NCBI GenBank assembly: GCA_040902515.1
Contig: JBBDXB010000006.1
Span: 268,280 to 332,279 of the forward strand
Direction: 5' to 3'
DNA length: 64,000 nt
Origin: Patescibacteria group bacterium
Lineage (GTDB): Bacteria; Patescibacteriota; SICC01
The position numbers and the translations under genes are program-made. The notes beneath the pieces are model-generated. The model ran no database searches. It was given only the letters and a program-made list of their open reading frames with translations, and was not told where the DNA came from. Positions 44,611 through 60,046 of the stretch are shown here, in pieces (positions within the stretch are counted from its first letter, which is position 1; each line of letters begins with the position of its first letter).

Positions 44611-45075
44611 CTAGAGACCCCCGGAGTTTACCATCCGTGTTTCGTAGTCGATGACATACGTCCCGTCGGGCTGCCCGATTTTCCGGAGGTACTCGATGAC
44701 GTACGGTCGTTGCTCGGAGACCTTTTTCGAGGGATCTTCCCCGTCGGCGTAATAGACCGTGGCCAACAGCTTGTACTTGTTGCCCGCGCTACCGTTGAAC
44801 GTCAGTTCCCAATGATCGTTCCCGTATGGAAGCGCCGACAACACCGGATTCCGATCACCCTCTTCCTGATGCTCTTCGAATGCTCCCGCATGCGGATCCT
44901 CATCCAAAGGAAGGGACGGGGAGAGGTCTGGCGTGGGGCTGGCCGGCGTAGTCCCGGGCTCGTCATCGGGCTCACTGCCGAAGAACACTACGGTTATCAG
45001 CGCCACCAGGACCAGCAGGGCAGCCGCGGCGATCAACAGCAGGCGCTTCCGGCTCATGGCGCCTCCCCGTGCCAC
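44611..45075 (-). CDS. Membrane-anchored hypothetical protein (possible VirB8/NTF2-like T4SS component)
   Basis: N-terminal TM, Pro/Thr linker, and ~100-aa beta-rich domain. It is the last gene of the T4SS-like operon. Confidence 0.35.
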   Translation of the reverse strand: MARGGAMSRKRLLLIAAAALLVLVALITVVFFGSEPDDEPGTTPASPTPDLSPSLPLDEDPHAGAFEEHQEEGDRNPVLSALPYGNDHWELTFNGSAGNKYKLLATVYYADGEDPSKKVSEQRPYVIEYLRKIGQPDGTYVIDYETRMVNSGGL

Positions 45076-46118
45076 TCGAAGTGCATCCAGTCCTTGGTGG
45101 TGCGGAAGTTGCCGCCCCAGAAGAAACCGTATTTCTCGAAGATCCGCACCCAGGAGTCGGGAATGTCATGCGTATCGCATTTACAGTACGGGTTCGTGTC
45201 CGGATTGATGTCGACCGCCGCGCCGTACATGTGGAAATAATACAGCGGGTCTCCCGGCCGGGGATGGTAGCCGCCGATCGACCGGACCTTGTAGTTATCC
45301 AGTCCCTTTTGCTTTATTTCCCGCTCGACGGCCTCCAGGCACGGCACGACCTTGCGGTGTGCCTGGATGTCGTGGCCGAAGAACGAGACCGGCTGCTTGG
45401 CCGCCGCACTGTTCGCCTTTCCGAAGACCTTTTCCCGATCTCCCACGTTGGATCCGGGAAGTCCGAAGGCGATCCCGTTCGCCGTACACTCGCCGGCCGG
45501 GCCGGAATCTTCCGGACAATCCTCCCCGGCATCGGCCGGCGCGCCCGTGTTGACGGCGCTGCGGACGATTTGTGCCAACCGCTCGTATCCGGCGGCATTG
45601 GGGTGGATGTTGTCCGCCATATCAATCCCCTTACCCTTGGTCTGGATGACCGTGACGTCTCCGAGGCCCCTGATCGCCTGGTTCTCGTTCGCGTAGTCAC
45701 CCCGGGAGAAGATCTCGACCCAGTATATCGCCGCCGAGTCGTTCTTGTTCCTGATCTTATTCACCATCGTCTGGGCGTCCGCGGCAAAGCCGTTCGACTT
45801 ATTAGTTCCGAGCTCGACGACTACGGCGTCGGCATTCTCTACTTTCGGCGTGTCGCTTTCGAGCGCGCTGATTCCGGCCGGGAGCGCGCGGCCCGTTTCG
45901 GCATTGACCGTATAGCGGTCGCCCAGCTTGTCCCGGATGCCCGTGCCGATGGAGTCGCCGACGAAGTAAACGGGCCCGTCCCCGGGTGCGGCTGCTTCGG
46001 CGACGCAGTCATCATCACCACCGCCGCCGAGCAGCGCCGCTGCCAATGCGATCGGCGCGATGATGACCATCAGCAGCAGGCCGATGATGAGAAGTCCGAT
46101 GCCGAGGTATTTTCCCAT
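45054..46118 (-). CDS. Bifunctional cell-wall hydrolase: SGNH/GDSL hydrolase domain plus peptidase M15 (VanY-like D,D-carboxypeptidase) domain
   Basis: N-terminal TM, then VYFVGDSIGTG / ELGTNKSNG / DNIHPNAAG (SGNH blocks I, III, V). C-terminal YHPRPGDPLYYFHMYGAAVDI...DWMHFEWHG (M15 zinc motifs). Confidence 0.55.
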   Translation of the reverse strand: MGKYLGIGLLIIGLLLMVIIAPIALAAALLGGGGDDDCVAEAAAPGDGPVYFVGDSIGTGIRDKLGDRYTVNAETGRALPAGISALESDTPKVENADAVVVELGTNKSNGFAADAQTMVNKIRNKNDSAAIYWVEIFSRGDYANENQAIRGLGDVTVIQTKGKGIDMADNIHPNAAGYERLAQIVRSAVNTGAPADAGEDCPEDSGPAGECTANGIAFGLPGSNVGDREKVFGKANSAAAKQPVSFFGHDIQAHRKVVPCLEAVEREIKQKGLDNYKVRSIGGYHPRPGDPLYYFHMYGAAVDINPDTNPYCKCDTHDIPDSWVRIFEKYGFFWGGNFRTTKDWMHFEWHGEAP

Positions 46119-46120
46119 GA

Positions 46121-46789
46121 TCAGTCCGTTGCTACGTGTACGTGCTCGTTTCCGTCGGGATTGCTGCCGGTGACTCTGCCGTTATCAAGCACGCAGCCGG
46201 GGTTCGCGATACCGAAGAGCTCGTTGATCTTGTACGGATTGCCCTCCTTGAGCGCCGAATCACAGAGGAACTGGTTGAGTCTGTGGGGATTATCAGTGCC
46301 GACGCTTCCGATATCCAAGGCTTGGCCGGGAGGACAGTGGAACGACCCCGCCTTATGGGATGCGCACGCCGCCGACGAGATGGCCAGGTTTCCCATTCTT
46401 GGCTGCTTTGCTGCTGCCAGAACAGCCCGAAGCACGTTGTCCTTGACGTCACCGCTTCGGATTTCCGTCTTGATGACTTCCTTTTGGTACGTGATGTTCC
46501 GCTGGGCCAGGAAAGCATCGCGCAGCTCCTTGCCGGACAGGCCGATCTCTCCGGCTTCCACGCTCACTTCATCATCTCCATCACCGCCGGATCCGGCGAT
46601 GCCGGCGACGGCGATACCGACGAGGAACACCAGCAGGAAGACTACGGCAAGTACGGCCACGACGACCCAGGTCCAGGGGTTCGCGAGCAGTGCCGCGGCC
46701 CGCGCCGTTTTCGCGGCCTTTGCCGCCTGACCGGCCGCTCCTGCGCCGGTCCGATCCTGCTGATCAGCCATCGTAGCCCTCCCGGTCAT
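46121..46789 (-). CDS. Membrane-anchored peptidase M15-like (VanY-like) protein
   Basis: N-terminal TM, with ASHKAGSFHCPPGQALDIGS (SxHxxGxAxD-like) and NEHVHVA (HxH). Confidence 0.4.
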   Translation of the reverse strand: MTGRATMADQQDRTGAGAAGQAAKAAKTARAAALLANPWTWVVVAVLAVVFLLVFLVGIAVAGIAGSGGDGDDEVSVEAGEIGLSGKELRDAFLAQRNITYQKEVIKTEIRSGDVKDNVLRAVLAAAKQPRMGNLAISSAACASHKAGSFHCPPGQALDIGSVGTDNPHRLNQFLCDSALKEGNPYKINELFGIANPGCVLDNGRVTGSNPDGNEHVHVATD

Positions 46790-47297
46790 AATCGCTGATG
46801 TGGACGTCCGTCGCGCTCCAGCGCGAACCGAACCGCTGCCAGGTGATCTCGATCGTTTGTTCGAACGTTTCCTCGGTCCGGAGCAACGTCGAACGCAGCC
46901 GCACCTCCGCCTGTGCCTCTCCGGCCGCGGAGTCGCCCGTCACGTCAGTCCGCAGCGCCTCGCTCCTGACCGGCTGGAAAAACGGGGCCCGGTCCGCATA
47001 GCGCAGAGTGCTTCGGTAGTCCTCGTAGAATTCCTTCGTCAGGTACGGGCGGATGCTCTCGGCATACGCCGCGTCGGCCCGTGAGAAGGACTGGTACTTT
47101 ACGGCCAACTCGGTTGACAGGCGCGCGAGCAGCTCCCGGTCGGCGGCGAGCGGGTCGGCGGTAGGTGTGGGCGAAGGCGGGGCCGTTGGCTCCGAAGTCG
47201 CTCCGGGAGCGGCGCGCCCGGCGGTCAGTACCAACAGCACTCCGGTTACCAGAATGGCAAAGATGACGAGCATCAGGATCAGCCGTTTTCTGTTCAT
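46764..47297 (-). CDS. Membrane-anchored hypothetical protein (possible VirB8/NTF2-like)
   Basis: N-terminal TM, Pro/Thr-rich linker, and ~120-aa globular domain. Overlaps its neighbours. Confidence 0.35.
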   Translation of the reverse strand: MNRKRLILMLVIFAILVTGVLLVLTAGRAAPGATSEPTAPPSPTPTADPLAADRELLARLSTELAVKYQSFSRADAAYAESIRPYLTKEFYEDYRSTLRYADRAPFFQPVRSEALRTDVTGDSAAGEAQAEVRLRSTLLRTEETFEQTIEITWQRFGSRWSATDVHISDYDREGYDG

Positions 47298-47941
47298 GTG
47301 CCTCCCTCGACATCCTTCGCGAATCGCTGTGCCTGCAAGGTCACCGCGTATACGTACCAGTCTGCATTGTTGTAGGAATAGATGCCATTCCGCCAGTTAC
47401 CGGGAGCGCCCCCGCCCAGGAGGTGATGGGCGGCTGCACAGGCGCCGTTCTCAACCGAATAGGCGGGCCAGGTGCGGGAGCCGGCTTCCCGGCACGGGGG
47501 ATTGTGGTTGATGGCGAAGCCCTGCCAGCTTGGTTCAAGGAACTGCCAGGGGCCGCCCGCACCGGCAAAGTTTACGACCGAATAGCCGGTGTCGGCGAAA
47601 CCGGTCTCGATGCTATGGATCCCCGCCAGGATCGACGGTCCGCAGCCTCCGAGCTTCTTCTTTTCGGAAATCTCGTTATAGATCGGAATGAACTTGGCGG
47701 GAGGTTTGTCGGTCTTGCCGGCGACGTACGCCTTCCCGGCTTCGGCACCGGCGGATGCGTCGCTGAAGATCTTATCGTAATCACATCCGCCCGAAAGGGA
47801 ACCACCGGCGTCTTCACCCCCACCCCCACCGGTCCCGGCCAGGGCCGCGGCCACCAGCAGGATCGGAATCATCGCGAGGCTTGCCAGGAACACCCCGCCT
47901 CCGAGGATCAGCCACGGCGCACCGCTCGACTTCTTGGCCAC
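47294..47941 (-). CDS. Lytic transglycosylase-like (SLT/VirB1-like) membrane-anchored protein
   Basis: N-terminal TM, Gly-rich linker, ...ILAGIHSIETGF... (catalytic E-S/T) and AGAGGPWQF (GLMQ-like). Lies immediately downstream of VirB4. Confidence 0.5.
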   Translation of the reverse strand: MAKKSSGAPWLILGGGVFLASLAMIPILLVAAALAGTGGGGGEDAGGSLSGGCDYDKIFSDASAGAEAGKAYVAGKTDKPPAKFIPIYNEISEKKKLGGCGPSILAGIHSIETGFADTGYSVVNFAGAGGPWQFLEPSWQGFAINHNPPCREAGSRTWPAYSVENGACAAAHHLLGGGAPGNWRNGIYSYNNADWYVYAVTLQAQRFAKDVEGGT

Positions 47942-49872
47942 TACTCCTCCTTCAGCCGGAGGCCGGCGTTCTCCAGCTCCTCAAGCTGCTGCGGGTTGGT
48001 GGTGATGATCTGGTCCTCGGCGTAGCTTGCTAGCACCTTGATCGCCACGTGGTTGAGCCCGGCGAAGAACAGCCCCTCGCCGACCTCGCTCTCCAGCAAG
48101 AGGAGCTTCTCGCCCTCGGTAAGGTTGAACGTGTCGGCCACCAGGTCGATCGATGCCGGCGATTGCCGGAGCAACAGTTGCAGCGAACTGTTCGTCACGA
48201 TCGCCTTGCCGTAGCTGGAATTCAAGAAGTCCTCCACGTCCTGCGTCACCGTGGTCAGGCCGAGATAGTATTTTCGAGCCCGCTTCGCCAGCGAAAACAG
48301 GAACTTCGCCGAGTCTTCGTGCCCCATCATCTGCCAGGCTTCGTCGATTACCATCAGTCGGCGCTTCCGGTCCTTCCGGATCAAATTCCAGATGTGGTTC
48401 AGGATCATGTACATCGCGATCGGCCGGAGCGAATCTTCCAGGTCGCGGATCGAGAAGGTCAGGAAGTGGTTGTCCAGCGAGACGTTGCTCGGCTTGTTGA
48501 GGAGTCCGGAGAACGAACCGGTCACGTACTTCTGGAGCTTCGACGCGACTTCCTCGGCGCCCTGCATGTTGGTCAGCACCTCATGGAAGTCCTGGAGCGT
48601 CGGCGGTGCGTTCTTGTGCGATGCTACGTCGGTGGTGATGTCGCGGAGCGCGTACGTTTCCATCAGGGCCCGGTCGACCAGCGCGTCCTGTTCGGGAGTC
48701 AGCGAACCGCACATCAGGGCGATCAGCCCGTGCAGGTTGGTGATCGCCGAGCGCAGGATCGCCTCGCCGTCCGTTTCGTCGCCGAGCGCCGGTGGCAGGT
48801 CGAACGGGTTGATGTTGTGCTCCGAGTTGAGCGACACGTTCACGAACCGTCCACCGACCGCGGCAGTCAGCGCCTGGTACTCGTTCTCCGGGTCGATCAC
48901 GATCGTCTCGGTGCCGAACATCAGCGAGCGGAGCAGTTCCAGCTTCACGGCGTAACTCTTACCACCACCGGACTTGGCGAAGATCACCATGTTGGCGTTC
49001 TCGAGCGTGAACCGGTCGAAGAGGATCAGCCCGTTGTTGTGGCGGTTCACACCGAAGAGGATGCCGTCGGACTGGGTAAGCTCCGAGCTCGTGAACGGGA
49101 ACGTCGTCGACAGCGAATCCGTGTCCATGTTCCGGGTGACGCGGAGTTCGTCGGTCCCGGTCGGGAGCGAGCTGTTGAAGCCCTGCTCCATCTGCAGGTT
49201 CGCATACTTGGTGAAGACGAGCTTCCCGTTGAGGGTCGCTTCGAGCTGCTTGGTGAGCCGGTCCAGCTCGTCCTTCGACTTCGCGTAGAGCGTGAAGTAG
49301 AGGGCGTACTGGAAGAACTTCTCCTCGCCGCGCTGCAGGCGGTCGCGGAGCTCCTCGGCGTCGCCGAGCGCGGTCTCCAGCTCCGGATCGCGAACCTTGC
49401 CCTTTTCCTTGTTGAGCATCCAGGCCGATTCCATCTGACCGACCTTCTTGCGGAGGTTCTGCATGATCTCCTTGGTCTCGACCGGGTAGATGAACATCGA
49501 GATGTCCATCGTGATGTCGTAGTTGATGACCGGATTCAGCCAGTTCGTGTTGATGTACCGCGGGTAGGTGAAGACGAAGAGCGTCCGCACGAAGTAGTCT
49601 TCGAGCTTGAGGTAGTTGAAAGTGATCTCCATCGCCGCCGGAGCGATCAGGTCCTTGATCGTGGAGATGCCTTCCTCGTAGACGCGCTTGGCCTCCTCGA
49701 ACTGCTGGGCCTCGACCTGTTGCTGGGAGCGCTCCGCCTGGGAAGCCTTCCCCTGCTTCCAGGCGAAGAACCGCTCCAGGAAGCTCGGCTTGTCGGAGCC
49801 GACGGAACGGCCGACGGCTTCGGCCGGTACGTCCGGCACGGGGGGTGCCTGCTGGTCCGGCTGGTCAGCCAT
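47941..49872 (-). CDS. virB4: Type IV secretion system ATPase VirB4/TrbE/PrgJ family
   Basis: N-terminal VirB4 domain (IKDLIAPAAMEITFNYLKLEDYFVRTLFVFTYPRYINTNWL), Walker A FAKSGGGKSY, Walker B MVIDEAW. The ATG at 49872 is preceded by SD GGAAGGAGG. The Arg-rich stretch upstream in the track ORF is not taken as coding. Confidence 0.9.
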   Translation of the reverse strand: MADQPDQQAPPVPDVPAEAVGRSVGSDKPSFLERFFAWKQGKASQAERSQQQVEAQQFEEAKRVYEEGISTIKDLIAPAAMEITFNYLKLEDYFVRTLFVFTYPRYINTNWLNPVINYDITMDISMFIYPVETKEIMQNLRKKVGQMESAWMLNKEKGKVRDPELETALGDAEELRDRLQRGEEKFFQYALYFTLYAKSKDELDRLTKQLEATLNGKLVFTKYANLQMEQGFNSSLPTGTDELRVTRNMDTDSLSTTFPFTSSELTQSDGILFGVNRHNNGLILFDRFTLENANMVIFAKSGGGKSYAVKLELLRSLMFGTETIVIDPENEYQALTAAVGGRFVNVSLNSEHNINPFDLPPALGDETDGEAILRSAITNLHGLIALMCGSLTPEQDALVDRALMETYALRDITTDVASHKNAPPTLQDFHEVLTNMQGAEEVASKLQKYVTGSFSGLLNKPSNVSLDNHFLTFSIRDLEDSLRPIAMYMILNHIWNLIRKDRKRRLMVIDEAWQMMGHEDSAKFLFSLAKRARKYYLGLTTVTQDVEDFLNSSYGKAIVTNSSLQLLLRQSPASIDLVADTFNLTEGEKLLLLESEVGEGLFFAGLNHVAIKVLASYAEDQIITTNPQQLEELENAGLRLKEE

Positions 49873-50755
49873 TGCTGCCTCCTTCCTGGTCAGTCGCCTG
49901 CTGGTCCGGCTGTTGCGGCTGCGCCGGTTGCGGTGGCGCGGACTGGGGCTGCGGTGCATAAGCCGCCGATTCTGTCTGGGGTTCCATGGTGGCCGGACTC
50001 GGCGCGGGTGCCTGTCCGGTCGGTCCGGCAGGCGCTTGTCCGTGGTTCGGCCCCCGGACCGTCGCTGCCGTCAGCTCGTCCACGTTGACCAGGCGCTGCT
50101 TGGTGGCGGTCTGCGGGTTGTAGATGCTGTAGAACAGCTCCACCAGTTCCTCGGAGTTGAGCTGGGCGGCACGGACGCCGAGCGCACCTAGGCCGGACGC
50201 CACCGACTCGGTCCGCTGGAGCAGCTGGCCGCGGTAGTTCTGGAACGTTGCCTCGCGCTTGGCGACCTCCTTGGCCGGCTGGGGATTGGTGGCGAACAGC
50301 TTCCCGAGTCCCTTGGCCGGTTCGGTCGCCGGCGGGAAGTACGGCACGATCACGTAGAACCGCTTGTCCATGATGTTCGTGACCGAGATCAGCCGGGAGA
50401 TGAACTCGCCGTACTCGATGGTCTGGAGCTTCACCAGCTCGATCGGCTGGTCGTCGGCCCGCTTCTTCAGCTTGTCGAGATAGTAGTCGAGGTCGAGCCG
50501 CCGCGAGTGGATCAGGATTTGTATCGGGAAGTTCAGCGAGTTCAGGAACCGCTGGTAGGCGTAGATCATCGCGTCCTGTTCCTCGCCGGACTTGAGCGCG
50601 AAGTTAACGGCGCTGGTCATCAGCACCGCGCGGAGCGAGCCGTCCTTCAGGACGATCACGCCGTCCTTGATCTCGGAGATATTGAGGTACGCCTGCGTGG
50701 AAGCCGCCTCCTGCTTCCGCTGCTGCTGTTGCTGGGTCTTGTCTTGCTTCGCCAT
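49865..50755 (-). CDS. T4SS-associated hypothetical protein with Gln/Pro/Ala-rich C-terminal tail
   Basis: 296 aa from ATG 50755 (SD AAGGAG 7 nt upstream). Conserved-looking N-terminal domain (IKDGVIVLKDGSLRAVLMTSAVNF...FPIQILIHSRRLD), then a low-complexity tail QAPAGPTGQAPAPSP...PQPAQPQQPDQQ. Overlaps the virB4 start by 8 nt. Confidence 0.5.
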   Translation of the reverse strand: MAKQDKTQQQQQRKQEAASTQAYLNISEIKDGVIVLKDGSLRAVLMTSAVNFALKSGEEQDAMIYAYQRFLNSLNFPIQILIHSRRLDLDYYLDKLKKRADDQPIELVKLQTIEYGEFISRLISVTNIMDKRFYVIVPYFPPATEPAKGLGKLFATNPQPAKEVAKREATFQNYRGQLLQRTESVASGLGALGVRAAQLNSEELVELFYSIYNPQTATKQRLVNVDELTAATVRGPNHGQAPAGPTGQAPAPSPATMEPQTESAAYAPQPQSAPPQPAQPQQPDQQATDQEGGSNG

Positions 50756-50756
50756 G

Positions 50757-51422
50757 TCAGGCTCCTTGTCCCGTCGGTTTGGGGGCAACGTCGCGCTGCG
50801 GTGATCGCCGCGCCTGCCTTGCTATCTTCTGGCTCAGTACCTGGCCCAGGTCGGCGCTGGCCCGGTCGGACCCGGCCCCCTCTTCCTCGCGCTCCAGGAT
50901 GTCCTGGGGTTCCTCGGTCTGGGCCATGAAGATGTTGAGCTTGGGCTTGGCTTCCACGTCGCTGGTGATCCGGCCGGTCGTCTCCGCCGCATCCACCTCG
51001 CTCCAGCCACGCGCGTCCACGATGTGGGACAGGCGTGCGAGCTTGGAGCGGACCTCTTCCTCCGACGGCTCTTCCTGCACGACCCTCGGCGGTGCCTGCC
51101 GATCTTCCAGCTTGATCTCGCCGAGACTGGGCATCCGCTTCCAGGCACGTCGCGACGGACGCACGTAGAACGAGAAGAACGAGCTGATGAACTTGGCGAA
51201 CGGCTGGTCGTTCGGACGGATGAAGACGAATGCCCCCGCGATGATCCAGGTGAACGCGGTGACCATAAAGAACGCGGGCGGCGAGGCGGTGTAGAACGCG
51301 CTGAACGACACGAACGTCACCAGTCCGGCTGCCAGCAGGTAGAAGAACTGCTTGAGCGTGAACGGCCCGAGGATCTTGTCCTCAAGCTCGACGTTCTGCG
51401 GGATTTTGTAGCTGCTGGCCAT
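50757..51422 (-). CDS. PrgI/VirB3-like family conjugation/T4SS membrane protein
   Basis: MASSYKIPQNVELEDKILGPFTLKQFFYLLAAGLVTF followed by a second TM, the hallmark N-terminus of the PrgI family. Acidic C-terminal extension. Confidence 0.6.
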   Translation of the reverse strand: MASSYKIPQNVELEDKILGPFTLKQFFYLLAAGLVTFVSFSAFYTASPPAFFMVTAFTWIIAGAFVFIRPNDQPFAKFISSFFSFYVRPSRRAWKRMPSLGEIKLEDRQAPPRVVQEEPSEEEVRSKLARLSHIVDARGWSEVDAAETTGRITSDVEAKPKLNIFMAQTEEPQDILEREEEGAGSDRASADLGQVLSQKIARQARRSPQRDVAPKPTGQGA

Positions 51423-51510: not shown

Positions 51511-53871
51511 TCATAGCGTGGGGTGGTCGAACGGAAGGCCGAGCGAGCGGCGGCCGTCCTGGTACTTCTTGACGACCGCGCTTTCGGTGCCCTGCTGCTT
51601 GGCTACCTCGGCCTGGTACTCGGCACCGGTCTTGAAGTCGGCACGGTTCACGCTGGAGCTGAGCAGTCCCTGCCGGGCCACTTCGTACGCCAACCGCTGC
51701 TTTTGGGCGGAGTGGAACTTGTTCCGGGCGGTGGCATCGGAGGCTTCGGACAACCGCACGCCGTCCAGGTTGCGCATGACGCGTAGGTAGCGGCCGTCGC
51801 CGCTCAGTGCACCCTGCAGCACGTTCGTATCCATGCCACGCAGCGTATCGGAGTCCATCAGCTGGGTCTTGATGTCCAGGGAACCGAAGTTGATGCGGTC
51901 GCCGCTGCGCTCGTACGAGGAGATCAGTGGATCGCCCTTGTGCAGCTGCTGGTAACCGGTCCAGGCGAGGTTCTTTGGCCCTTGGAGCATGTGTTCGTCG
52001 ACGTACTCGGCCTGGGCCAGCTCCTTGAAGGCTGCCGCCGAGTTGATGCGGTTCTGGGCCAGCGCGTGCTCGGTGGCGTCCATTTCCATGCGTTGGTTCG
52101 GATCGCCGCTCGAGTGGTTGGCGAAGTATCTCCCGCCCTCCTGGACCGTTCCGTACTTGTAGCCGTGGGCGATCCGGTTCTTGGCAGAGATCGACAGCGG
52201 GATCATTTCTTTCTGTGCCTGGTTCACCATGGACTCAAGCGCTGCGACTTGCTGGCCCTGCGACATGCCAGTGAGCGTGCGGGTGAGTCCCGTGCCGCTG
52301 GGACCGAGCTGGTTGAACGCCTCAGCCATCGCGATCCGGTTGTGAGCGGCTGACAGCATGGCGTCTTGCTCCTGGCTGTCCTTGCGTTGCTTGAAGAAGG
52401 CCTTGGTCTCGCGGCCGCGCTGACCGATCGTCTTGCCGCCGGGGCCCGGAAGCATGCCGACGGCGCCCAGGCCGCCCTTGCCGCCGATGCCCCCGGCACG
52501 TTTGCCCTGGCCGGCGGCCATGCTGGCGACCCGCCCGCCGAGCGCCAGCGGCACGGCCACCGCGGCGATCACGATGCCGGCGAAGAAGAGTGCCTGGATG
52601 ATCGCGGTCGCGCCTGACCGGCCCGTGTCCGCACCGGTCAGGATGGCCTCAAGCATCAGCGACCCGACGAATAACAGCAGGAAGGCGACCGGCGCCATGT
52701 AGACCCAGCGGATGTACGTCTGGAGCAGGTTCCTCGATTCACCGCGGGTGAACGGAAGCACCAGGAACAGGAACAGCGCGGGTGAGAGCACGGCCAGGAC
52801 CCAGATCACTACCACGCGGACGATGAAGAAGAACAGGAGGACCAGGAGGGCAACGAGGATGATGATCGACGCCAACAGGAGGACGACGCCCTCTCCGAAA
52901 CCGTCAGCCAGTCCGCTCGCGAACCCGCTTCCTACGCCCGACCAGGACTGGATCATGTCCTTGGCGTGTTCCGCGAACGGCTGGCTGAGGACGAAAGCCG
53001 TGTTGGCGAGGATGTTCGCGAACAGGAAGCTGAAGTTGACGGCCAATATGGAGAAGACGAGAAGCGGCAGGAGCTGGCGGACGTTATACTTCTGTGGCTC
53101 GATCCGGATGATGGACGAAAGCGCCAGGCCGCTCAGAACGAGGATGAAGATCAGGTTCACGACGTCACGGACGACCTTCCATCCCTCCGCCAGGCCCCGG
53201 TTCTCGTTGAAGTTACCGACGTCCATGGCCCACAGGAGGGCGTCGGTGACGCTGCCGGAAAGACTCGAGACGACCTCCGCCATCTTGGCCAGCGCCTTGG
53301 CGAACGGGTCATCCGAAGCCCGGTCGAGCAAGCTCGTCTGCTCCACGTCGGTCGCGGCGCCCCCTTCTTCCGCCCATGCGATGCCCTCCGCATTGGACCG
53401 GTCCTTGAGGAACTCGCCGATCGGTGTCTTATGGAAGTCGATCAGGTTACAGACCTTGTTGGCAGGCTCCAGGCCCTCGCCGGGCGGGCCGTCGACTACG
53501 TAACCGAAGCCGCCGCCGTTACCCGGGTCGTTCCGGAACAGGAACGTAAGCCCGCCGCTCCCCGTACCGTCCGGCTTGAAGAAGAAGTCCCAGCTGTCGA
53601 GGCCGCCGCCGCGGTCGTGGTGCTTCAGGGCATTGAACGTGAACGTGATATCGCCGACCGTGACGCCCAGGCTTTCGGGGCGGACCTTGTCGGGATCATC
53701 GGGGAAACTGCGCGGTTGGAAGCGGTAGTCCTCGGTCTTGCCGTCAGGGCAGGCAAGGGAATCGGCAGGAGCGGCACTAACCGGCTCCGCCGCCAGGCCC
53801 AACGAGAGCATGACGAACAGGCCTCCGAGGGCCGCCGTGCTGAGCCGTCTGATTCGTTCAGGAAACCGCAT
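51511..53871 (-). CDS. VirB6/TrbL-like polytopic T4SS membrane protein, paralog 1 (signal peptide, ~210-aa extracellular N-domain, 6-7 TM core, Gly-rich segment, ~300-aa cytoplasmic C-domain)
   Basis: Signal peptide LGLAAEPVSA. TM core VVNLIFILVLSGLALSSIIRIEPQKYNVRQLLPLLVFSILAVNFSF... shared with the next gene. GKRAGGIGGKGG linker. Confidence 0.45.
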   Translation of the reverse strand: MRFPERIRRLSTAALGGLFVMLSLGLAAEPVSAAPADSLACPDGKTEDYRFQPRSFPDDPDKVRPESLGVTVGDITFTFNALKHHDRGGGLDSWDFFFKPDGTGSGGLTFLFRNDPGNGGGFGYVVDGPPGEGLEPANKVCNLIDFHKTPIGEFLKDRSNAEGIAWAEEGGAATDVEQTSLLDRASDDPFAKALAKMAEVVSSLSGSVTDALLWAMDVGNFNENRGLAEGWKVVRDVVNLIFILVLSGLALSSIIRIEPQKYNVRQLLPLLVFSILAVNFSFLFANILANTAFVLSQPFAEHAKDMIQSWSGVGSGFASGLADGFGEGVVLLLASIIILVALLVLLFFFIVRVVVIWVLAVLSPALFLFLVLPFTRGESRNLLQTYIRWVYMAPVAFLLLFVGSLMLEAILTGADTGRSGATAIIQALFFAGIVIAAVAVPLALGGRVASMAAGQGKRAGGIGGKGGLGAVGMLPGPGGKTIGQRGRETKAFFKQRKDSQEQDAMLSAAHNRIAMAEAFNQLGPSGTGLTRTLTGMSQGQQVAALESMVNQAQKEMIPLSISAKNRIAHGYKYGTVQEGGRYFANHSSGDPNQRMEMDATEHALAQNRINSAAAFKELAQAEYVDEHMLQGPKNLAWTGYQQLHKGDPLISSYERSGDRINFGSLDIKTQLMDSDTLRGMDTNVLQGALSGDGRYLRVMRNLDGVRLSEASDATARNKFHSAQKQRLAYEVARQGLLSSSVNRADFKTGAEYQAEVAKQQGTESAVVKKYQDGRRSLGLPFDHPTL

Positions 53872-53985: not shown

Positions 53986-54017
53986 AAAAAGCGCTCAATC
54001 ATGGCATAATTGAGCGC
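53986..54017 (-). terminator. Intrinsic terminator between the two VirB6-like genes
   Basis: Perfect 9-bp inverted repeat GCGCTCAAT-N9-ATTGAGCGC at 53991-54017, followed on the minus strand by TTTTT. Confidence 0.5.
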
Positions 54018-54036
54018 CACGGTCAAGAGGGCCGAA

Positions 54037-56634
54037 TCAGTGGATGGTGGCGTTGGGGTTGTTATGGGAATCCAGAACTGACCGGTTGGCGTTCGCGTCA
54101 TGGAATCCGCCGGCGCCCGCGAACCGTCGCATGAGTTCACGCTGCTGATCCTGCGGCATGGAATTCCGATGGCCTTGGGTCACGGCGTAGGCAGCACGAG
54201 TCTTGTCCAGGCTCCCAAGCGATTCCGCTGCCGTGCGGTGGTAATCCGATGTTTCCCTTCCTTCGGCGTAATCGACCGCGGCTTGCAGGTAGGTACTGTG
54301 GTCCCACTTCTTCATGTCGTCGGGAGAAGCGAACTGCACCTTGGCATCGGCCGTTCCCTGGCGGTACTCACCATTACGGTCGACGGCTGCCTGGGCCGGG
54401 TCGGATACGTTAAGCTGCTGTAGCCCGCTTCCTGCATAGGTCTCCGTGAGGTCGTGGGTCGCCAGGCCGGCCTGGGAAAGTTCCGCGAACGCCGCTTCGG
54501 AGGCCTGGCGCTTGCCCGCGAAGTCCGCCTCGTCCGCGGTGAGCCTGCCGAGAGAGTTGTTTCCGCTATCGAAGACCTCGTCGCCCGCTTTCAAACTAGG
54601 ATTACCATGCGCCCAGGCGATACGGCGTTTGCCAGCTGGGGTAACAGTGGCCATCTCCTTCTGGTACCGTCCGATGGCCCGCTGCTGGGCGATGGTGCGT
54701 TGTCCCGGCGTGGCTCCCGTGAGCTTGCCGACACCCTTGCCTCGTCCGGTCTGCTCCTCAAGGTGGGCCATCGCAGCCTTTTGGCGCAAGTCGCCACGAG
54801 AGCCTTCCGCGTATGACTTCGGCTTCTTCAGGCCGAGACCGTAGCCGGTCGCCCGGGCCCGGGTAGCCAGGGATGTCCCGCCCGGACTGACCCGGCCGAC
54901 CGTCCCGGCAAGCGCGGCCCCGGCACCCTTTCCGCCGTACTTCCCGGCTTTCCCGGCACCTCTTCCGGCCGACTTGACGCCTCGGTATGCTTGCCCGACG
55001 ACCTGGCCCCCGAGTTGGAGCGGGATCATCACCGCCGCCACCGCGGCCAGCAGGAAGAAGGCGACCTTCAGGAGAAAGTCGGGGCCGTTGATGTCTTCAT
55101 TCCCCCGTCCGGCGGTACCGATCAGTTCGGCCGCGATAAACAGCAGGACGAAAGCGATCGGTGCGGCGAAGATCCACTTCAGCGCGTTCTGCCACCACTG
55201 GCCAGCCAGCCCCCTCGTCAGCGGGAGGACCATAAAGAGGAACACGAACGGCGACAGCGCGGCCAGGAACCAGATGATCAGCATGCGCAGGACGAAGAAG
55301 GCGAAGAGGATGATGAACCCGAACAGGATCATCAGCACCAGCAGTAGCGCGATGATGAATTGACCGATCCCCTCGCTCGGATCGATGATGCTTCCGGTCG
55401 CCGGCGGATTGGCCAGCAGGTCGAACGCCTTGCTTGCGAACGGCTGGGAAATGATGTAGGCGACGTTAGTAAGAATCTGTACCAGGATGAAGCTGAAGTT
55501 CACCGCGATGACTCCAAAGATCAGGCGGGGAAGGAGTGCCCGTATGCCGTACCGGTCAGTGTCGATGCGGAGGATGTTGGAGAAGGCGATCGTCACCATG
55601 ACCAATATGAAGATGATGTTGACGAAGTCGCGCATGGTCTTCCAGGCATTGGTGAGTCCGCGGTTGTCGGTGAGGGTGCCGATATTGATCACGTTCAGAA
55701 GGGCGCTCTTGATCCAGTCGAGGACCGCACTGATAGCTTCCTTGATCGATTCCAACGCCTTTTCAATGGCGTCACTGAAGGCGCCGGTCGTCTTGTGACA
55801 GGCGTTGGCAGTGAGGTTGTACTCCTTGATTTTCTTTTCGGTCTCATCGCTTTCCGGATCATTTGGGATGTCTTCGGTTTGGTTGGGGAACTGACCCCGG
55901 TCGCCGTTCGGCACTTCCGCGATGATCGTGTCTTCGTTTTCGCGCACCGTTCCCTGACAGGTACCGGCGTACACGAACCGATCTATGTCCCCGGCATTGA
56001 GCTCATTGCCCTTCCGGGACCAGAGGATGATCGCCAGGTTCCGGTTGTACTCATTACGGAAGATCCAGACCACGCCCTTGGAGTGGCCCACACCGGTAAT
56101 GTCGCTGGTGCGCGTCATCACTTCCGACAGTACGAAGCGCACGGGAATGCCCCCGAACTTTAACTGGGTGTCACCGACTTCATGATCCTTGTTGCTCCAT
56201 ACGAGGAACGGGTTTCCTTCGAACTTGAGGAATTCCCGGGAAGTGTTGCTCCGTGCCCGGAAGTCGCCGCGGTACACATAGTTAAGGTTTCGGTCCTTGA
56301 AGGTGTTTCCTTCGATGCCGAACTCCCGCATGGCTTCAGGGACGGAATTTATTTGCTGTAATTCGGTTTTTTGTTCCGCGCTACGCCGATTGTCGATTTC
56401 TTCTATCGGCACCAACGGGGGGATGTCCGGATCAGACTGAGGAGGATCCCCGATCGGTGCCGCGGGAGCGCCGGGTTCGAATGGATTCTGGTCGCTGAAT
56501 TGCGCCTGGGCTTGTCCGGCGGCGAAAGGTGCGACCAAGGCGGGTACCAGCAACGCGCCCAGCACCATGCTGCTCAGCGTGCGGTGCAGCCAACGACGGA
56601 TTCGAGGGCGGGTGAATGTCTTGGTCGCTTTCAT
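54037..56634 (-). CDS. VirB6/TrbL-like polytopic T4SS membrane protein, paralog 2 (~300-aa extracellular N-domain)
   Basis: Signal peptide ...APFAAGQAQA. TM core DNRGLTNAWKTMRDFVNIIFILVMVTIAFSNILRIDTDRYGIRALLPRLIFGVIAVNFSF... paralogous to 51511..53871. Gly-rich AGRGAGKAGKYGGKGAG linker. Confidence 0.45.
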   Translation of the reverse strand: MKATKTFTRPRIRRWLHRTLSSMVLGALLVPALVAPFAAGQAQAQFSDQNPFEPGAPAAPIGDPPQSDPDIPPLVPIEEIDNRRSAEQKTELQQINSVPEAMREFGIEGNTFKDRNLNYVYRGDFRARSNTSREFLKFEGNPFLVWSNKDHEVGDTQLKFGGIPVRFVLSEVMTRTSDITGVGHSKGVVWIFRNEYNRNLAIILWSRKGNELNAGDIDRFVYAGTCQGTVRENEDTIIAEVPNGDRGQFPNQTEDIPNDPESDETEKKIKEYNLTANACHKTTGAFSDAIEKALESIKEAISAVLDWIKSALLNVINIGTLTDNRGLTNAWKTMRDFVNIIFILVMVTIAFSNILRIDTDRYGIRALLPRLIFGVIAVNFSFILVQILTNVAYIISQPFASKAFDLLANPPATGSIIDPSEGIGQFIIALLLVLMILFGFIILFAFFVLRMLIIWFLAALSPFVFLFMVLPLTRGLAGQWWQNALKWIFAAPIAFVLLFIAAELIGTAGRGNEDINGPDFLLKVAFFLLAAVAAVMIPLQLGGQVVGQAYRGVKSAGRGAGKAGKYGGKGAGAALAGTVGRVSPGGTSLATRARATGYGLGLKKPKSYAEGSRGDLRQKAAMAHLEEQTGRGKGVGKLTGATPGQRTIAQQRAIGRYQKEMATVTPAGKRRIAWAHGNPSLKAGDEVFDSGNNSLGRLTADEADFAGKRQASEAAFAELSQAGLATHDLTETYAGSGLQQLNVSDPAQAAVDRNGEYRQGTADAKVQFASPDDMKKWDHSTYLQAAVDYAEGRETSDYHRTAAESLGSLDKTRAAYAVTQGHRNSMPQDQQRELMRRFAGAGGFHDANANRSVLDSHNNPNATIH

Positions 56635-56682: not shown

Positions 56683-56741
56683 CCGTGCCACCTGGCGGTG
56701 GCCGAGGTGCAACCGGAGCCTTCGCGGAACCAGCCCATAAG

Positions 56742-56769
56742 AAAAGAGGCCCGCGCGCGGGCCTCTTTT
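56742..56769. terminator. Bidirectional intrinsic terminator after pilin gene 1
   Basis: aaaa-GAGGCCCGCGCGCGGGCCTC-tttt at 56742-56769. On the minus strand the hairpin is followed by TTTTCTT. Confidence 0.7.
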
Positions 56770-56785
56770 CAGGACAGGGCCGAGG

Positions 56786-57160
56786 TTACTCGGTAACGCG
56801 GAAGCCGCGTTCGACGCCCAGGTACTGCTGGATCAGTCGCGTCAGTACGAACGCGATGAAGATGATGATCAAGCCAAGGATGGCATAGAGGATGGTCTTC
56901 CGGGCTGCGTCGACCTGTTCGGGGTTGCCCGTGGAAACCACGTAGCGGAAACCGCCGATAATCAGGAAGAGCACCGCGACGGCGCCGGCGAAGAGCAGCA
57001 GCGCTTCGATGACGCTGGCGAGCACTTCGCCCAGCGAAGTACCGGACACCGGGTTGTCGATGTTTGGCCGGCGTACCTGCGCGAACGCGGTCTGTACCAT
57101 GCCGAGCGAAAGCGCGAAGCCGGAACCGGTTCGGATGAGAAGTTGTTTCATGCGTATCAC
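56786..57160 (-). CDS. VirB2/TrbC-like pilin, paralog 1
   Basis: Signal peptide ending AFAQ, then hydrophobic helix - GGFRYVVSTGNPEQVDAARKTILYAILG - second hydrophobic helix. 124 aa. Confidence 0.6.
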   Translation of the reverse strand: MIRMKQLLIRTGSGFALSLGMVQTAFAQVRRPNIDNPVSGTSLGEVLASVIEALLLFAGAVAVLFLIIGGFRYVVSTGNPEQVDAARKTILYAILGLIIIFIAFVLTRLIQQYLGVERGFRVTE

Positions 57161-57180: not shown

Positions 57181-57822
57181 TTACCCACGTGTCGCTTGGA
57201 TAGTCGTCACCACGATAACATAGGAAAGGAACACCACCGCGAGCCCGATGACCGAGTACAGGATGGTCTTTCGGGCCGCCTCGACCTGGTCCTGGTTGCC
57301 CTGCGAGGTGACGTAGCGGTAGCCGCCGAGGATCAGGAACAGTACCGCCGCGGCGCCGCCGAACGCGAGGAATATCTCGAACAGGCGGGCAAGGATGCCG
57401 CTCGCACTGCCGGGTGCTCCCTGGATCGCACCGCCGATGCCGGGGGCGCGGGACACCCTGGTCTGCAAGCTCGCGTCCAAGGTCCGTTGGAGCAACACTA
57501 CGATCGCATACGAACTGACCGTCAGGATGAACCCGGTGATCGACCAGGTCAGCCCCTGCTTGGCCTTTTCCACCTTCTCCGGGTTGCCTGCCGAGAGGAT
57601 GTACTGGTAGCCGTTCACGACGATGAACAGGACGGCGACAGCGGCCGCGAACAGCATCCCGAACCGGATGAACTGCACCAGGATCCGGACGAGGTCGTCG
57701 AGTCCGACGCTGCGCGGCGTCTGCGGGATGTTGAAGAATCCGCCCTGGGCGCTGGCCGTTTCCGGAAGAAGCACGGCAGCGGCGACGGCCGAAAGCAGCG
57801 TGACCGGCAGGTACCGCTTCAT
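57181..57822 (-). CDS. VirB2/TrbC-like pilin, paralog 2 (internally duplicated, two pilin modules)
   Basis: Signal peptide ETASA, then module A (NGYQYILSAGNPEKVEKAKQGLTW) and module B (GGYRYVTSQGNQDQVEAARKTILYSVIG), each between hydrophobic helices. Confidence 0.55.
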   Translation of the reverse strand: MKRYLPVTLLSAVAAAVLLPETASAQGGFFNIPQTPRSVGLDDLVRILVQFIRFGMLFAAAVAVLFIVVNGYQYILSAGNPEKVEKAKQGLTWSITGFILTVSSYAIVVLLQRTLDASLQTRVSRAPGIGGAIQGAPGSASGILARLFEIFLAFGGAAAVLFLILGGYRYVTSQGNQDQVEAARKTILYSVIGLAVVFLSYVIVVTTIQATRG

Positions 57823-58187
57823 ATCCGGAGTCCCGAGTTAAAGCCGAGCGCCCGTGAGATCATGAAGATCACGCCGACCGAGACGATCGCGACGATCAGC
57901 CCATAGACGGCGTACAGCAGACTCTTCTTCGCACGATCCACCAGCTCGGGGTTGCCCTGCGCGACCATGTACCGGTAGCCGGCGATGGCTACGTAGAGGG
58001 CGGCGACGGTGGGGATGAAGAAGATCAGCGCGTTGAAGATGGCGCTGATCGGCTCCCCGAGGTTGTCAAAGCCGGTCTGGCTCTGGATGCGTCGTGGCCG
58101 GTTGCCCGGGTCCGGCAGCTGCGCGGCCGCCTGAGCGGGAACCGTCAGGAGCAGCGCCAGTGCCGAATAGCCGAACCGCCGCATCAT
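57819..58187 (-). CDS. VirB2/TrbC-like pilin, paralog 3
   Basis: Signal peptide ...VPAQAAAQ. AGYRYMVAQGNPELVDRAKKSLLYAVYG between two hydrophobic helices. Start set at the internal Met (MMRRFGY). Confidence 0.55.
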   Translation of the reverse strand: MMRRFGYSALALLLTVPAQAAAQLPDPGNRPRRIQSQTGFDNLGEPISAIFNALIFFIPTVAALYVAIAGYRYMVAQGNPELVDRAKKSLLYAVYGLIVAIVSVGVIFMISRALGFNSGLRI

Positions 58188-58657
58188 CCGCCCGGCCTCG
58201 TGAAGTCGATGTCGCCGCAGCCGCGTTCTCCCGGCCGGCACGGGTCGGTGGTCCGTGGATTGATCGTACTGAGGATCAGCGCCGCCAGGATCAGCAGGGC
58301 TAGGCCGATCAGGGTCTTCTCCACGATGTCCTTGGCGTTCGAGATCTTTTCCGGATCGCCGTAGCTTCCCATGTAGGTGTAGCCCGCGTAGATCAACATG
58401 ATGATCGCGAGGAGCCCCCCGATGAATGCGAACCAGATGTAGGCCGCGTTGATGTACTGCACGACGGACGTCCGCTCGACCTCCTGGCCGCTGACCGGGT
58501 CGATGTTATCGCCGTCCCGGTCGCGGGCTTGTGCCAGCGCCGACCCGTCGGCGGTCGTCCCGGCGGACGGAGCCGCTGATGCGGACGGAGCGGTCGTCAC
58601 TGCAAGTCCGAGCGCGAGCCCGACGGCGAAAATGAGTTGGACGGTTCGTGTAATCAT
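58184..58657 (-). CDS. VirB2/TrbC-like pilin, paralog 4, with Cys-containing C-terminal extension
   Basis: Signal peptide ...PSASA. AGYTYMGSYGDPEKISNAKDIVEKTLIG between hydrophobic helices. C-terminal DPCRPGERGCGDIDF. Confidence 0.5.
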   Translation of the reverse strand: MITRTVQLIFAVGLALGLAVTTAPSASAAPSAGTTADGSALAQARDRDGDNIDPVSGQEVERTSVVQYINAAYIWFAFIGGLLAIIMLIYAGYTYMGSYGDPEKISNAKDIVEKTLIGLALLILAALILSTINPRTTDPCRPGERGCGDIDFTRPGG

Positions 58658-58711
58658 GGGCGATAGGGTAAGGGAGCTATCATAGAGCGGAAAAACGGCT
58701 TCGTAAAGGCG

Positions 58712-60046
58712 CTACTGCGTCGAAGCGTTCAGTTGCCGGAGTATGTCCGTCAGTTCGTTGGCCCCCCGGTCGATCACGTTCTGCGGATTCTCCCCGGCCA
58801 GGACCTGGTCGATCATCCGGGCGAAGATCGCATCGGCCTTGGCCGCGTCGCCCTTGTACCAACTGCGGGCGGTCTCAAGCTGCTCCTGTAATACGTCCAG
58901 CCCGCCGCTGGCCGGGACTTCCTTGCGGGCGGGAACGCTCTCGACCGCCTGGGTGTATTCGCGCATCTGGTCGCGGTTGGTGATGAACCGGAGGAAGTTC
59001 CAAGCCTCCTTTGGATGCTCGCTGCCCTGGGCCACGGTCTCGACCCAGAAGCTGGCATAGTTCACCGGCGAGGTCCCGGCGATCTGCGGCATCGGGGCGA
59101 TCTCGTACTGGAGCTCGGGATTGAGCCGCTCAAGCTCCGGCGCGTGGTATGCATAGCCGAGCATGTACGCGACCTTGCCTTCGGCGAACGCCCGGACCGA
59201 ATCGCCCGACTTGCTGTTCCAGGAATAGTTGCTGCTCCGCGGGTCGGCGAAGCTGGTGTAGAACTCCAGCGCGAGACGGCCGAGCGGCTGCTGCCGACCC
59301 TCCACGTCCTGCGTGAGGTTGAACGTGGCCTGGGTATTGTCATCGTTCGTCATCTGCGTGCGCTGCTGGAGCATCATCAGCGCGAGAATGTCGACGCTTC
59401 GGTTGACGGTGTTGTTGCCGAGCGCGATCGCCGAGCGGACGAACCGGTCACCCTGCCGCTGGTTGAGCTCCCGGAGCAGCCCGGGTCGGTCAGGATTGCC
59501 GGGTTCGCCGACCAAATCCTCCCAGGTCTTGGGTGCCTCGTGGGTTCCCGTCCCCCCCTCGAATTCCGCGTTGAGATAGAGCCCCAGCGAATCGATCGCC
59601 AGCGGGATGCCATAGATGCGGTCGTTCCGGACCGTTTCGAGCGCGGGCGGATAGAATTCATTCCGGTAATCCCGGAGGGCGTACTTCTCTGCCGAGATCG
59701 GTTCGATCTTGTCGAAGTAACGCGGAAGCCAGGTGTTGTGCACGGTGAAGATGTCCGGCCCGCGCCCCCCCGCGAGGGCATCCACCAACGTCCGTTCATA
59801 CTCCTCGTACGTGAGCTTCCGGTACTCGATCTTCACGTCCGGATGGTCCGCCTGATACCGGTCTATCAGCGGTTGGAACTTGTCCTTGTCGTCGAACACC
59901 CGCCAGTACCGGATCGTGACCGGACCGGCATCGCCTTCATCTTCCGCGGATTGCTGCCGTCCCCCCAGGACCACCATGGCGATGATCAGTAACACAAGCA
60001 CCCCGAGGAGCACGCCAACGATGATAGTGATGCGTCGTTTGTCCAT
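58712..60046 (-). CDS. Extracellular solute-binding protein (ABC transporter SBP family 1, sugar-type), orphan
   Basis: N-terminal TM anchor, then a family-1 SBP pattern (IRYWRVFDDKDKFQPLIDRYQADHPDVKIEY...). No permease or ATPase genes adjacent. A weak hairpin plus T5 follows the stop, and a TATGAT box precedes pilin gene 4. Confidence 0.7.
   Translation of the reverse strand: MDKRRITIIVGVLLGVLVLLIIAMVVLGGRQQSAEDEGDAGPVTIRYWRVFDDKDKFQPLIDRYQADHPDVKIEYRKLTYEEYERTLVDALAGGRGPDIFTVHNTWLPRYFDKIEPISAEKYALRDYRNEFYPPALETVRNDRIYGIPLAIDSLGLYLNAEFEGGTGTHEAPKTWEDLVGEPGNPDRPGLLRELNQRQGDRFVRSAIALGNNTVNRSVDILALMMLQQRTQMTNDDNTQATFNLTQDVEGRQQPLGRLALEFYTSFADPRSSNYSWNSKSGDSVRAFAEGKVAYMLGYAYHAPELERLNPELQYEIAPMPQIAGTSPVNYASFWVETVAQGSEHPKEAWNFLRFITNRDQMREYTQAVESVPARKEVPASGGLDVLQEQLETARSWYKGDAAKADAIFARMIDQVLAGENPQNVIDRGANELTDILRQLNASTQ

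Follow-up and report, generated by a model that had tools for sequence, protein, structure and literature searches.

Here we describe a compact cluster of genes for a type IV secretion system (T4SS) at positions 44611-60046, on the minus strand, of a 64-kb stretch of DNA (hereafter the window) from contig JBBDXB010000006.1 of a high-GC Candidatus Saccharimonadia/Patescibacteria metagenome-assembled genome (MAG) with a genome GC of ~63%. The interval holds 15 tightly packed genes, or 16 with the co-directional darA gene at 44243-44572, rather than the 17 consecutive genes of the original prediction, from which darA was absent. In the direction of transcription these encode a solute-binding protein (SBP), four VirB2-type pilins, two extended VirB6-like proteins, a PrgI/VirB3-like protein, a TrsD-like protein, VirB4, and five proteins downstream of VirB4 that include wall hydrolases and a VirB8-fold protein. 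The locus is very probably the chromosomal, pilus-encoding T4SS cluster already known for Saccharibacteria, and the counterpart of SEML1_0004-0019 of Southlakia epibionticum. The GenBank entries for the window proteins are hypothetical proteins of “Patescibacteria group bacterium” with WD603 locus tags, those of the cluster being WD603_00265-00340. Searching a species-level genome collection with VirB4 yielded 580 relatives; the best 80 of these, on which all locus counts out of 80 below are based, are all from Patescibacteria, and the closest are two Saccharimonadia MAGs with 91-92% VirB4 identity. Tight packing, an orphan SBP, four tandem VirB2-like pilin genes, a terminator followed by a near-consensus promoter, two paralogous VirB6-like proteins, a PrgI/VirB3-like protein, VirB4 with a Shine-Dalgarno sequence, a VirB1-like lytic transglycosylase and flanking DUF721/recF/dnaN/dnaA genes had all been proposed at the outset, and are borne out by the evidence given below.

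The VirB4 ATPase (47941-49872) is of the MPF-FATA/CD1110 type found in monoderm conjugation systems (MPF, mating-pair formation): it scores 385.7 bits against NF045971 (conju_CD1110), for which the equivalog cut-off is 325, and 86.6 bits against P-loop_TraG. Both the Walker A (GGGKS) and Walker B (VIDEAW) motifs are intact in the translation, and the probable start is the ATG at 49872, which is preceded by a GGAGG Shine-Dalgarno sequence. Two genes lie immediately upstream, with junction gaps of +1 and -8 nt between PrgI, the TrsD-like gene and VirB4. The PrgI/VirB3-like protein (50757-51422) scores 42.4 bits against PF12666, above the cut-off of 27 (the curated single-sequence cut-offs used throughout are the Pfam gathering score and the NCBIfam model cut-offs), and consists of a two-helix transmembrane (TM) hairpin with an acidic C-terminal extension. 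The gene between them (49865-50755) had been described simply as encoding a “Q/P-rich protein”; the tail of that composition is present, and the identity of the protein can now be refined, since NCBIfam VirB4 N-terminal and TrsD models match it. It aligns with positions 94-233 of NF045975 (E 2.4e-8), with positions 11-81 of the CD1110 model, and with TrsD NF041427 (E 2.8e-5, below the model cut-off); an hhalign comparison of the TrsD-like family with the VirB4 family was not significant (E 0.33). On these profile matches it is a TrsD-like protein, that is, a VirB4 N-terminal domain encoded as a separate gene, as described in PMC12102498, where TrsD homologs are reported to adjoin virB4 and to be the most abundant accessory gene.

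Upstream of PrgI are two extended VirB6-like genes, VirB6a (54037-56634, 865 aa) and VirB6b (51511-53871, 786 aa). VirB6a is built from a signal/anchor, a ~285-aa variable outer domain, a polytopic TM core and a ~330-aa hydrophilic C-domain, and 6-7 TM segments were found in the VirB6-like proteins by TM scan. The two are paralogs, with 33% identity over 571 aa spanning the TM core and C-domain (BLASTP E 6e-75), and N-domains that are unrelated to each other. Taken singly, they match TrbL (PF04610) below the cut-off (E 3e-3 for VirB6a and 1.2e-3 for VirB6b), but at the level of the family, comprising these two proteins and 33 homologs from related loci, PF04610 is matched by 14 of 35 members with a best E-value of 6.8e-10. 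A search of the PDB with the VirB6-family profile was swamped by the low-complexity C-domains. Two VirB6 copies were found by sequence search only in loci L001, L002 and L025.

The pilin array lies upstream of the VirB6 genes, and all four of its genes exceed the gathering score of PF18895 (T4SS_pilin). Pilin 1 (58184-58657) scores 45.7 bits and carries a signal peptide, two TM helices and a Cys-containing C-terminal tail; pilin 2 (57819-58187) scores 33 bits and starts at an ATG at 58187, in a 4-nt overlap with the stop codon of pilin 1; pilin 3 (57181-57822) scores 77 bits over two stretches; and pilin 4 (56786-57151) scores 43 bits and has an AGGAGG Shine-Dalgarno sequence before its ATG at 57151. 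According to the TM scan, each pilin has a signal peptide, and every module contributes two TM helices. Pilin 3 is a tandem protein, with a signal peptide, four TM helices and modules at residues 43-109 and 141-206, bringing the array to five modules in total. Pairwise identity among the five ranges from 25 to 56%, compared with a published mean of 25% and maximum of 54% for such pilins (PMC12102498). Pilin 4 (56886-56992) and the second module of pilin 3 (57257-57363) share a 107-nt repeat, family D1, with 79% DNA and 56% protein identity, a likeness that suggests recent duplication or gene conversion inside the array.

The fused arrangement of pilin 3 recurs in related genomes: 30 Saccharibacteria loci each have one fused pilin open reading frame (ORF), for example L001:698-1348 and L028:3900-4559, with two modules in 29 of them and three in L063. 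The passages of published accounts of the system that were available to us make no mention of a fused pilin. The presence of several pilins and two VirB6 proteins, on the other hand, is not the poorly described architecture that the original prediction took it to be, as 441 pilin arrays of 2-11 genes have been reported from 383 assemblies (PMC12102498) and S. epibionticum is described with six pilins and two VirB6-like proteins. All four pilins of the window also match NF045849, the “Mbov_0395 family pilin-like conjugal transfer protein” of Mycoplasma integrative and conjugative elements (ICEs), with E-values from 2e-7 to 8.5e-13 (2.3e-7 for pilin 1, 3.3e-7 for pilin 2 and 5e-10 for pilin 4), one of them, pilin 3, above the model cut-off (47.8 bits versus 40). 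Likewise, the Mycoplasma Mbov_0397 model matches both VirB4 and the TrsD-like protein. Because all four pilins match this Mycoplasma ICE family, the sequence hints that the pilin may go back to a monoderm ancestor rather than being a loan from diderm T4SSs.

Within the cluster, junctions from PrgI to the last gene range from -8 to +2 nt and are accompanied by Shine-Dalgarno sequences (start codons having been refined using these and the relatives), and pilins 1, 2 and 3 overlap by 4 nt at each junction. The larger gaps are of 151 nt after pilin 4, 165 nt between the VirB6 genes and 88 nt before PrgI. The first contains an intrinsic terminator (56737-56770), a hairpin at 56770-56741 with arms GAAAAGAGGCCCGC/GCGGGCCTCTTTTC followed by TTAT, which we read directly from the sequence; the consensus scanner omitted it as the T run falls inside the stem. 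Beyond it, at 56682-56654, is the best promoter match in the region, of sigma-70 type and near-consensus (TTGACA-17 nt-TATGAT, 11 of 12 hexamer positions), which includes the TG of an extended -10 and lies 20 nt upstream of the VirB6a start. A separate transcription unit for the pilins, closed by a strong terminator, would fit the need for structural subunits in excess. The gap between the VirB6 paralogs contains a 13-bp hairpin with a T run (53990-54018), found by the scanner and visible in the sequence, which overlaps a weak promoter-like site (53990-54026) and may be an attenuator, an internal terminator or a second start point.

The five genes downstream of VirB4 belong to a fast-evolving part of the cluster among the 80 related loci. 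The first (47294-47941) encodes a lytic transglycosylase of SLT type that is anchored in the membrane and is a functional analogue of VirB1; the protein itself has no direct Pfam or NCBIfam match, but its homologs carry PF13406 (SLT_2) and PF01464 (SLT), the family profile finds an MltB-type structure (7qvd, E 5.5e-7) and T7 gp16 (E 2e-4) in the PDB, and Glu112 is invariant in the family. The next (46764-47297) is a bitopic protein with a TM segment at residues 6-24, a Pro-rich linker and an NTF2-like domain. It has no Pfam, NCBIfam or PDB profile match, but its AlphaFold2 model (three helices and a four-stranded sheet, pLDDT 83) has VirB8-family T4SS proteins, and not generic NTF2 enzymes, as its nearest structures in a fold search; it thus resembles VirB8 by predicted fold and topology, not by sequence membership. 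In this lineage the gene follows VirB4 and the SLT gene. Only this member of the pair originally called NTF2-like anchored proteins retains that description. The other, the last gene of the cluster (44611-45057), encodes a small anchored protein with a TM segment, a Pro-rich linker and a ~70-aa beta-beta-alpha-beta domain; we rejected the NTF2-like assignment, as its model matches neither the NTF2 nor the VirB8 fold, and a BLASTP match with the VirB8-fold protein is confined to the TM and linker regions.

The remaining two genes of this group had both been proposed as M15 peptidases, one of them fused to SGNH, and here too the two differ in how far the assignment goes. The product of 45054-46118 is a membrane-anchored fusion of an SGNH esterase and an M15_4 peptidase: the match to PF13539 (Peptidase_M15_4) reaches 52 bits (cut-off 25), those to GDSL families (E 1e-4) stay below their cut-off, and the translation shows GDS, GTN and DNIH motifs together with HxxGAAVD and WMHFEW. 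The membrane-anchored product of 46121-46771 has no significant Pfam, NCBIfam or PDB profile match and no BLASTP similarity to the M15 protein encoded by 45054-46118, and is assigned from its zinc-ligand motif and from fusion evidence. It carries a LAS-type H...D / HxH signature in which D153, H210 and H212 are invariant in nine homologs and H139 is kept in most, one homolog has the canonical SxHxxGxAxD motif, and single homologs give weak scores to HH_signal (E 0.056) and M15_4 (E 0.093). It is probably an M15-like wall hydrolase with a Hedgehog/DD-peptidase fold, a putative assignment at the level of motif and fusion. One 554-aa homolog from another genome (P0032) combines SLT_2, GDSL/SGNH and the 46121-46771 domain in a single protein, functions that are encoded by separate genes here.

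Among the 80 candidate phyla radiation (CPR) loci, the shared core consists of VirB4 (80), the TrsD-like protein (73), PrgI (71), VirB6 (62) and pilins (56 loci, 222 ORFs). In 31 of the loci dnaA and virB4 are no more than 10 kb apart, and in 26 of these 31 the two genes are convergent. The order pilins-VirB6-PrgI-TrsD-VirB4-...-recF-dnaN-dnaA extends to animal-associated Saccharibacteria with ~50% VirB4 identity, and both gene order and dnaA adjacency are kept across Saccharimonadia loci over the range from ~50% to 92%. The same site and orientation at ~50% VirB4 identity point to long-term vertical inheritance.

The window itself shows the same neighbourhood. A plus-strand dnaA-dnaN-recF-dciA block (39827-44223; DnaA, DnaN, RecF and DciA/DUF721 by Pfam) marks the replication origin region and is convergent with the T4SS operon, with dnaA ~3.3 kb from the cluster end. 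The cumulative GC skew reaches its minimum near 41 kb, at dnaA-dnaN. A search for DnaA boxes found five sites against four expected, and as these are not enriched, the placement of oriC rests on gene synteny and the GC-skew minimum. The whole T4SS operon lies to the right of this minimum, on the minus strand, and is therefore transcribed head-on to replication, reading toward the origin, an arrangement that is conserved among the relatives.

Features of a mobile element were looked for in the same stretch. No relaxase, type IV coupling protein (T4CP), integrase or transposase domain was found by Pfam in the substantial ORFs of the window, which reaches 44 kb to the left of the cluster and 4 kb to the right; the earlier statement that mobility genes are missing within 20 kb on each side therefore stands for the left flank, and on the right for the 4 kb covered. 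Flanking att-like direct repeats, which the original prediction had named, together with a relaxase/VirD4/integrase pair, as the sign of an ICE that would overturn it, were not found in the window, where the search gave only the repeat of the pilin paralogs and short chance matches, and the GC content of the cluster (0.61-0.64) is like that of its flanks, within a window range of 0.56-0.70. The cluster comes with no relaxase or coupling protein and with no oriT-type element or integrase, and for this reason the machine is not regarded as a conjugation system. The proposal of a chromosomally fixed, non-conjugative T4SS-like machine for host interaction in an ultrasmall episymbiont is thus upheld by the conserved site, the missing mobility domains and the flank-like GC, and it is also the published conclusion (PMC10633639; PMC12102498; PMC12857230). 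Every element of this interpretation is already in print, and the window contributes refinements and not a new kind of system.

Two genes that bracket the cluster require separate comment. The first gene of the co-directional run (58712-60046) encodes a membrane-anchored SBP of the SBP_bac_8/SBP_bac_1 type (PF13416, 97 bits; one N-terminal TM segment), lies 54 nt from pilin 1 and has a promoter-like site nearby (60090-60063). No permease or ATPase partner is encoded nearby. Its membership of the T4SS is uncertain, and the linkage looks incidental because only 5 of 80 loci (L002, L004, L011, L018 and L025), which belong to different CPR classes and have the gene at varying positions, carry an SBP homolog within 10 kb of virB4. 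At the other end, darA (44243-44572), encoding a DarA cyclic-di-AMP receptor (PF06153, 116 bits; NF058593, 113.5 bits, below the cut-off of 140), follows the last cluster gene downstream on the same strand after 38 nt, with no terminator seen between the two. It holds the same position in L001 and L002. The gene is possibly co-transcribed with the cluster, but it is not a T4SS component.

Further out, the left side of the cluster continues from darA, dciA, recF, dnaN and dnaA to yidC and jag, and then to a polysaccharide/O-antigen cluster, tRNAs, a sigma factor and dnaG, whereas the right side holds a nucleotidyl transferase, a racemase, mgsA and hsp20. The large cell-surface polysaccharide cluster, on the other side of the origin (22997-37685), includes several GT4 glycosyltransferases, GDP-mannose dehydratase and epimerase, a flippase, a methyltransferase and three Wzy_C (O-antigen ligase-like) paralogs. 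The region 7000-12500 has a lower GC (0.56-0.58), few ORFs and five tRNA genes (three Ser and two Arg); an Rfam scan of the window returned tRNAs and nothing else.

By analogy with characterised T4SSs, the two extended VirB6 proteins, the PrgI/VirB3-like protein and the VirB8-fold protein would form a translocon in a single cytoplasmic membrane, on which a VirB4 hexamer, its N-terminal domain supplied in part by the TrsD-like protein, would dock to energise assembly. The anchored hydrolases, namely the SLT enzyme, the M15-type peptidase or peptidases and the SGNH esterase, would open the peptidoglycan round the machine and may also act on the host wall. Pilins from their own, separately terminated unit would be exported through Sec and kept in reserve in the membrane, from which VirB4 would draw them for polymerisation into a VirB2-type pilus or conduit reaching the host cell. 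The function we favour, tentatively and at somewhat less than an even chance, is that of a host-contact pilus combined with protein export toward the host without a coupling protein.

Several points weigh against this overall reading of the locus. No function has been demonstrated for any member of the system and no pilus has been observed. The present scan covers the window alone, with its 4 kb of right flank, and a T4CP may be encoded elsewhere, VirD4 homologs lying far from virB4 in many Patescibacteria (PMC12102498). VirB6, TrsD, SLT and VirB8 all fall below curated single-sequence cut-offs and were recognised from family, profile or fold evidence, and the products of 46121-46771 and 44611-45057 are not securely assigned. 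The VirB8-like protein may be dispensable, given that the NTF2-like gene of S. epibionticum is non-essential (PMC10633639).

A different direction of transport should be considered, in which DNA, nucleotides or other molecules of the host are brought in by the T4SS and its pilus, as in the ComB system of H. pylori, with the adjacent SBP capturing the substrate. Patescibacteria lack nucleotide, amino-acid and lipid synthesis and their T4SS has been proposed as an uptake route (PMC11665869; PMC12857230), the S. epibionticum T4SS is essential while its ComEC is dispensable (PMC12857230), and here an SBP gene comes first in the co-directional run, at a distance of 54 nt from pilin 1. However, there is no experimental evidence of import, an SBP is near the T4SS in just 5 of 80 loci and at varying positions, and by Pfam the cluster has no ComEC-like channel or DNA-processing gene, and we consider an import machine unlikely, although still a genuine competitor.

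Alternatively, the ATPase and membrane proteins could serve solely to build a VirB2-type filament that anchors the cell to its host, with nothing translocated. In favour of such an adhesion organelle are the dedicated pilin unit, with five divergent modules and its own terminator, the missing coupling protein nearby, and the variable outer domains of the VirB6 paralogs, which could bind host surfaces. Against this, Saccharibacteria already have two type IV pili for adhesion and motility (PMC11623550; PMC12857230), the full translocon set (VirB3, VirB6, VirB8 and VirB4) is retained across the phylum, and T4CP-less systems, Ptl and Brucella VirB among them, do nevertheless secrete proteins (PMC12102498). 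We rate a pilus-only role as improbable to about the same degree as import.

Slightly more doubtful is a composite of these ideas, in which a heteropolymeric VirB2-type pilus on a monoderm cell would use the conserved, covalently fused two-module pilin as an adaptor, base or tip subunit in place of the missing VirB5, the SLT enzyme, one or two LAS peptidases and the SGNH esterase would breach the wall of an actinobacterial host, and a split-VirB4 conduit without a coupling protein would import host material, the pilin descending from a Mycoplasma-ICE-like monoderm ancestor. Least credible by a wide margin is an ICE or its decaying remnant, that is, a mating-pair-formation module of the monoderm MPF-FATA type that landed beside the origin: the VirB4 score, which for the conjugative ATPase family NF045971 (CD1110) exceeds the equivalog cut-off, the Gram-positive conjugation core of PrgI, TrsD, VirB6, VirB8 and wall hydrolases, and the pilin match to Mycoplasma ICEs are all in its favour, but the scanned ORFs hold no relaxase, T4CP, integrase or transposase domain, there are no flanking direct repeats, cluster GC equals flank GC, relatives at ~50% VirB4 identity have the same locus and orientation beside recF-dnaN-dnaA, and the S. 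epibionticum counterpart genes are essential for growth (PMC10633639).

The wider interest of the patescibacterial T4SS is that it is the first T4SS reported to be essential for the growth of its bearer and possibly the first pilus-forming T4SS on a monoderm, and it is a leading candidate for how ultrasmall epibionts exploit their hosts. The window adds no new principle to this picture; what it provides is a clean and compact example, high in GC, in which the transcription signals are clear. Four small leads for structural and evolutionary work also emerge from it, namely the tandem-fused pilin, the VirB8-fold gene downstream of VirB4, the homology of the pilins to those of Mycoplasma ICEs, and the head-on operon at the origin, which may go beyond the published accounts, to judge by the passages of them available to us.

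In TM7x and throughout the Saccharibacteria, McLean et al. 2020 described VirB4, VirB6 and PrgI in a conserved region that also carries an array of 4-6 small proteins exported by Sec. Wang 2023 (PMC10633639) defined the S. epibionticum T4SS as SEML1_0006-0019, with a series of pilins and no coupling or relaxase proteins, and found by transposon sequencing (Tn-seq) that nearly all genes of the cluster are essential for epibiotic growth, a requirement known for S. epibionticum only. Quinonero-Coronel 2025 (PMC12102498) described 2,474 virB4 genes with MPF-FATA affinity, accompanied by TrsD, PrgI and VirB6, found relaxases to be near-absent, and proposed a gene-dosage effect from the closeness of virB4 to dnaA/dnaN. 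A 2025 review (PMC12857230) treats the system as a distinct newcomer in the T4SS superfamily with an unknown function, and a 2025 activated-sludge study scored virB2, virB4, virB6 and virB8 across Saccharimonadia bins.

The closest comparison is with the T4SSs of S. epibionticum ML1 and Nanosynbacter lyticus TM7x. In S. epibionticum, dnaA, dnaN and recF are followed on the opposite strand by two small exported proteins, a lysozyme-like protein, a Hedgehog/DD-peptidase-domain protein, VirB4, a 293-aa protein, PrgI, a 998-aa “T4SS protein”, an NTF2-like protein with an ECOD match to TraM of pIP501, a 1088-aa TrbL/VirB6, six PF18895 pilins and Hsp20, the large VirB6-like proteins being SEML1_0011 and SEML1_0013 (PMC10633639 and its supplement). 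This content matches that of the window almost one for one. As in S. epibionticum and TM7x, our cluster comes directly after dnaA-dnaN-recF in convergent orientation; has VirB4, an upstream TrsD-like protein of ~290 aa, PrgI, two large VirB6-like proteins, an NTF2/VirB8-like protein and an array of PF18895 pilins; carries wall hydrolases, including a Hedgehog/DD-peptidase (M15) domain, downstream of VirB4, with Hsp20 nearby; and contains neither a relaxase nor a T4CP. The differences are of detail. The pilins here are four co-directional genes with five modules and their own terminator, whereas the six of S. epibionticum are divergently transcribed; the VirB8-like gene follows VirB4 and SLT instead of lying between the VirB6 genes; and the VirB6 proteins are of ~800 aa instead of ~1000-1100 aa. 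An SLT transglycosylase takes the place of the lysozyme/glucosaminidase of S. epibionticum as glycan cleaver, with an SGNH esterase also present, and no counterpart of the prealbumin-like and PEGA-domain proteins of S. epibionticum could be detected. Finally, our cluster is bracketed by SBP and darA genes and is set in a genome of high GC.

Among better studied machines, the cluster resembles the MPF-FATA T4SSs of monoderms (Prg of pCF10, Tra of pIP501, CD1110 of CTn2, and the Mycoplasma ICE) in a VirB4 that passes the CD1110 cut-off, in PrgI/VirB3, TrsD-like, VirB6 and VirB8-fold (PrgL/TraM-like) proteins and anchored multi-enzyme wall hydrolases, and in having no outer-membrane core components and pilins that match the Mycoplasma ICE Mbov_0395 family. 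Unlike these systems, it has no relaxase, T4CP, oriT-type element, integrase or PrgB-type surface adhesin, is chromosomally fixed at the origin, and encodes multiple VirB2-type pilins, which are reported to be lacking in Gram-positive T4SS classes (PMC12102498, PMC12857230). With Bordetella Ptl, Brucella VirB and the Rickettsiales vir systems it shares the lack of a nearby coupling protein, and its duplicated, extended VirB6 and multiple divergent VirB2 proteins recall the vir-type paralog expansion of the Rickettsiales, which are likewise obligately host-associated (PMC12102498, PMC12857230). Those are diderm MPF-T machines, however, with a VirB7/9/10 core and VirB11, whereas the system described here is of monoderm type and separate ancestry, and the host that it faces is another bacterium.

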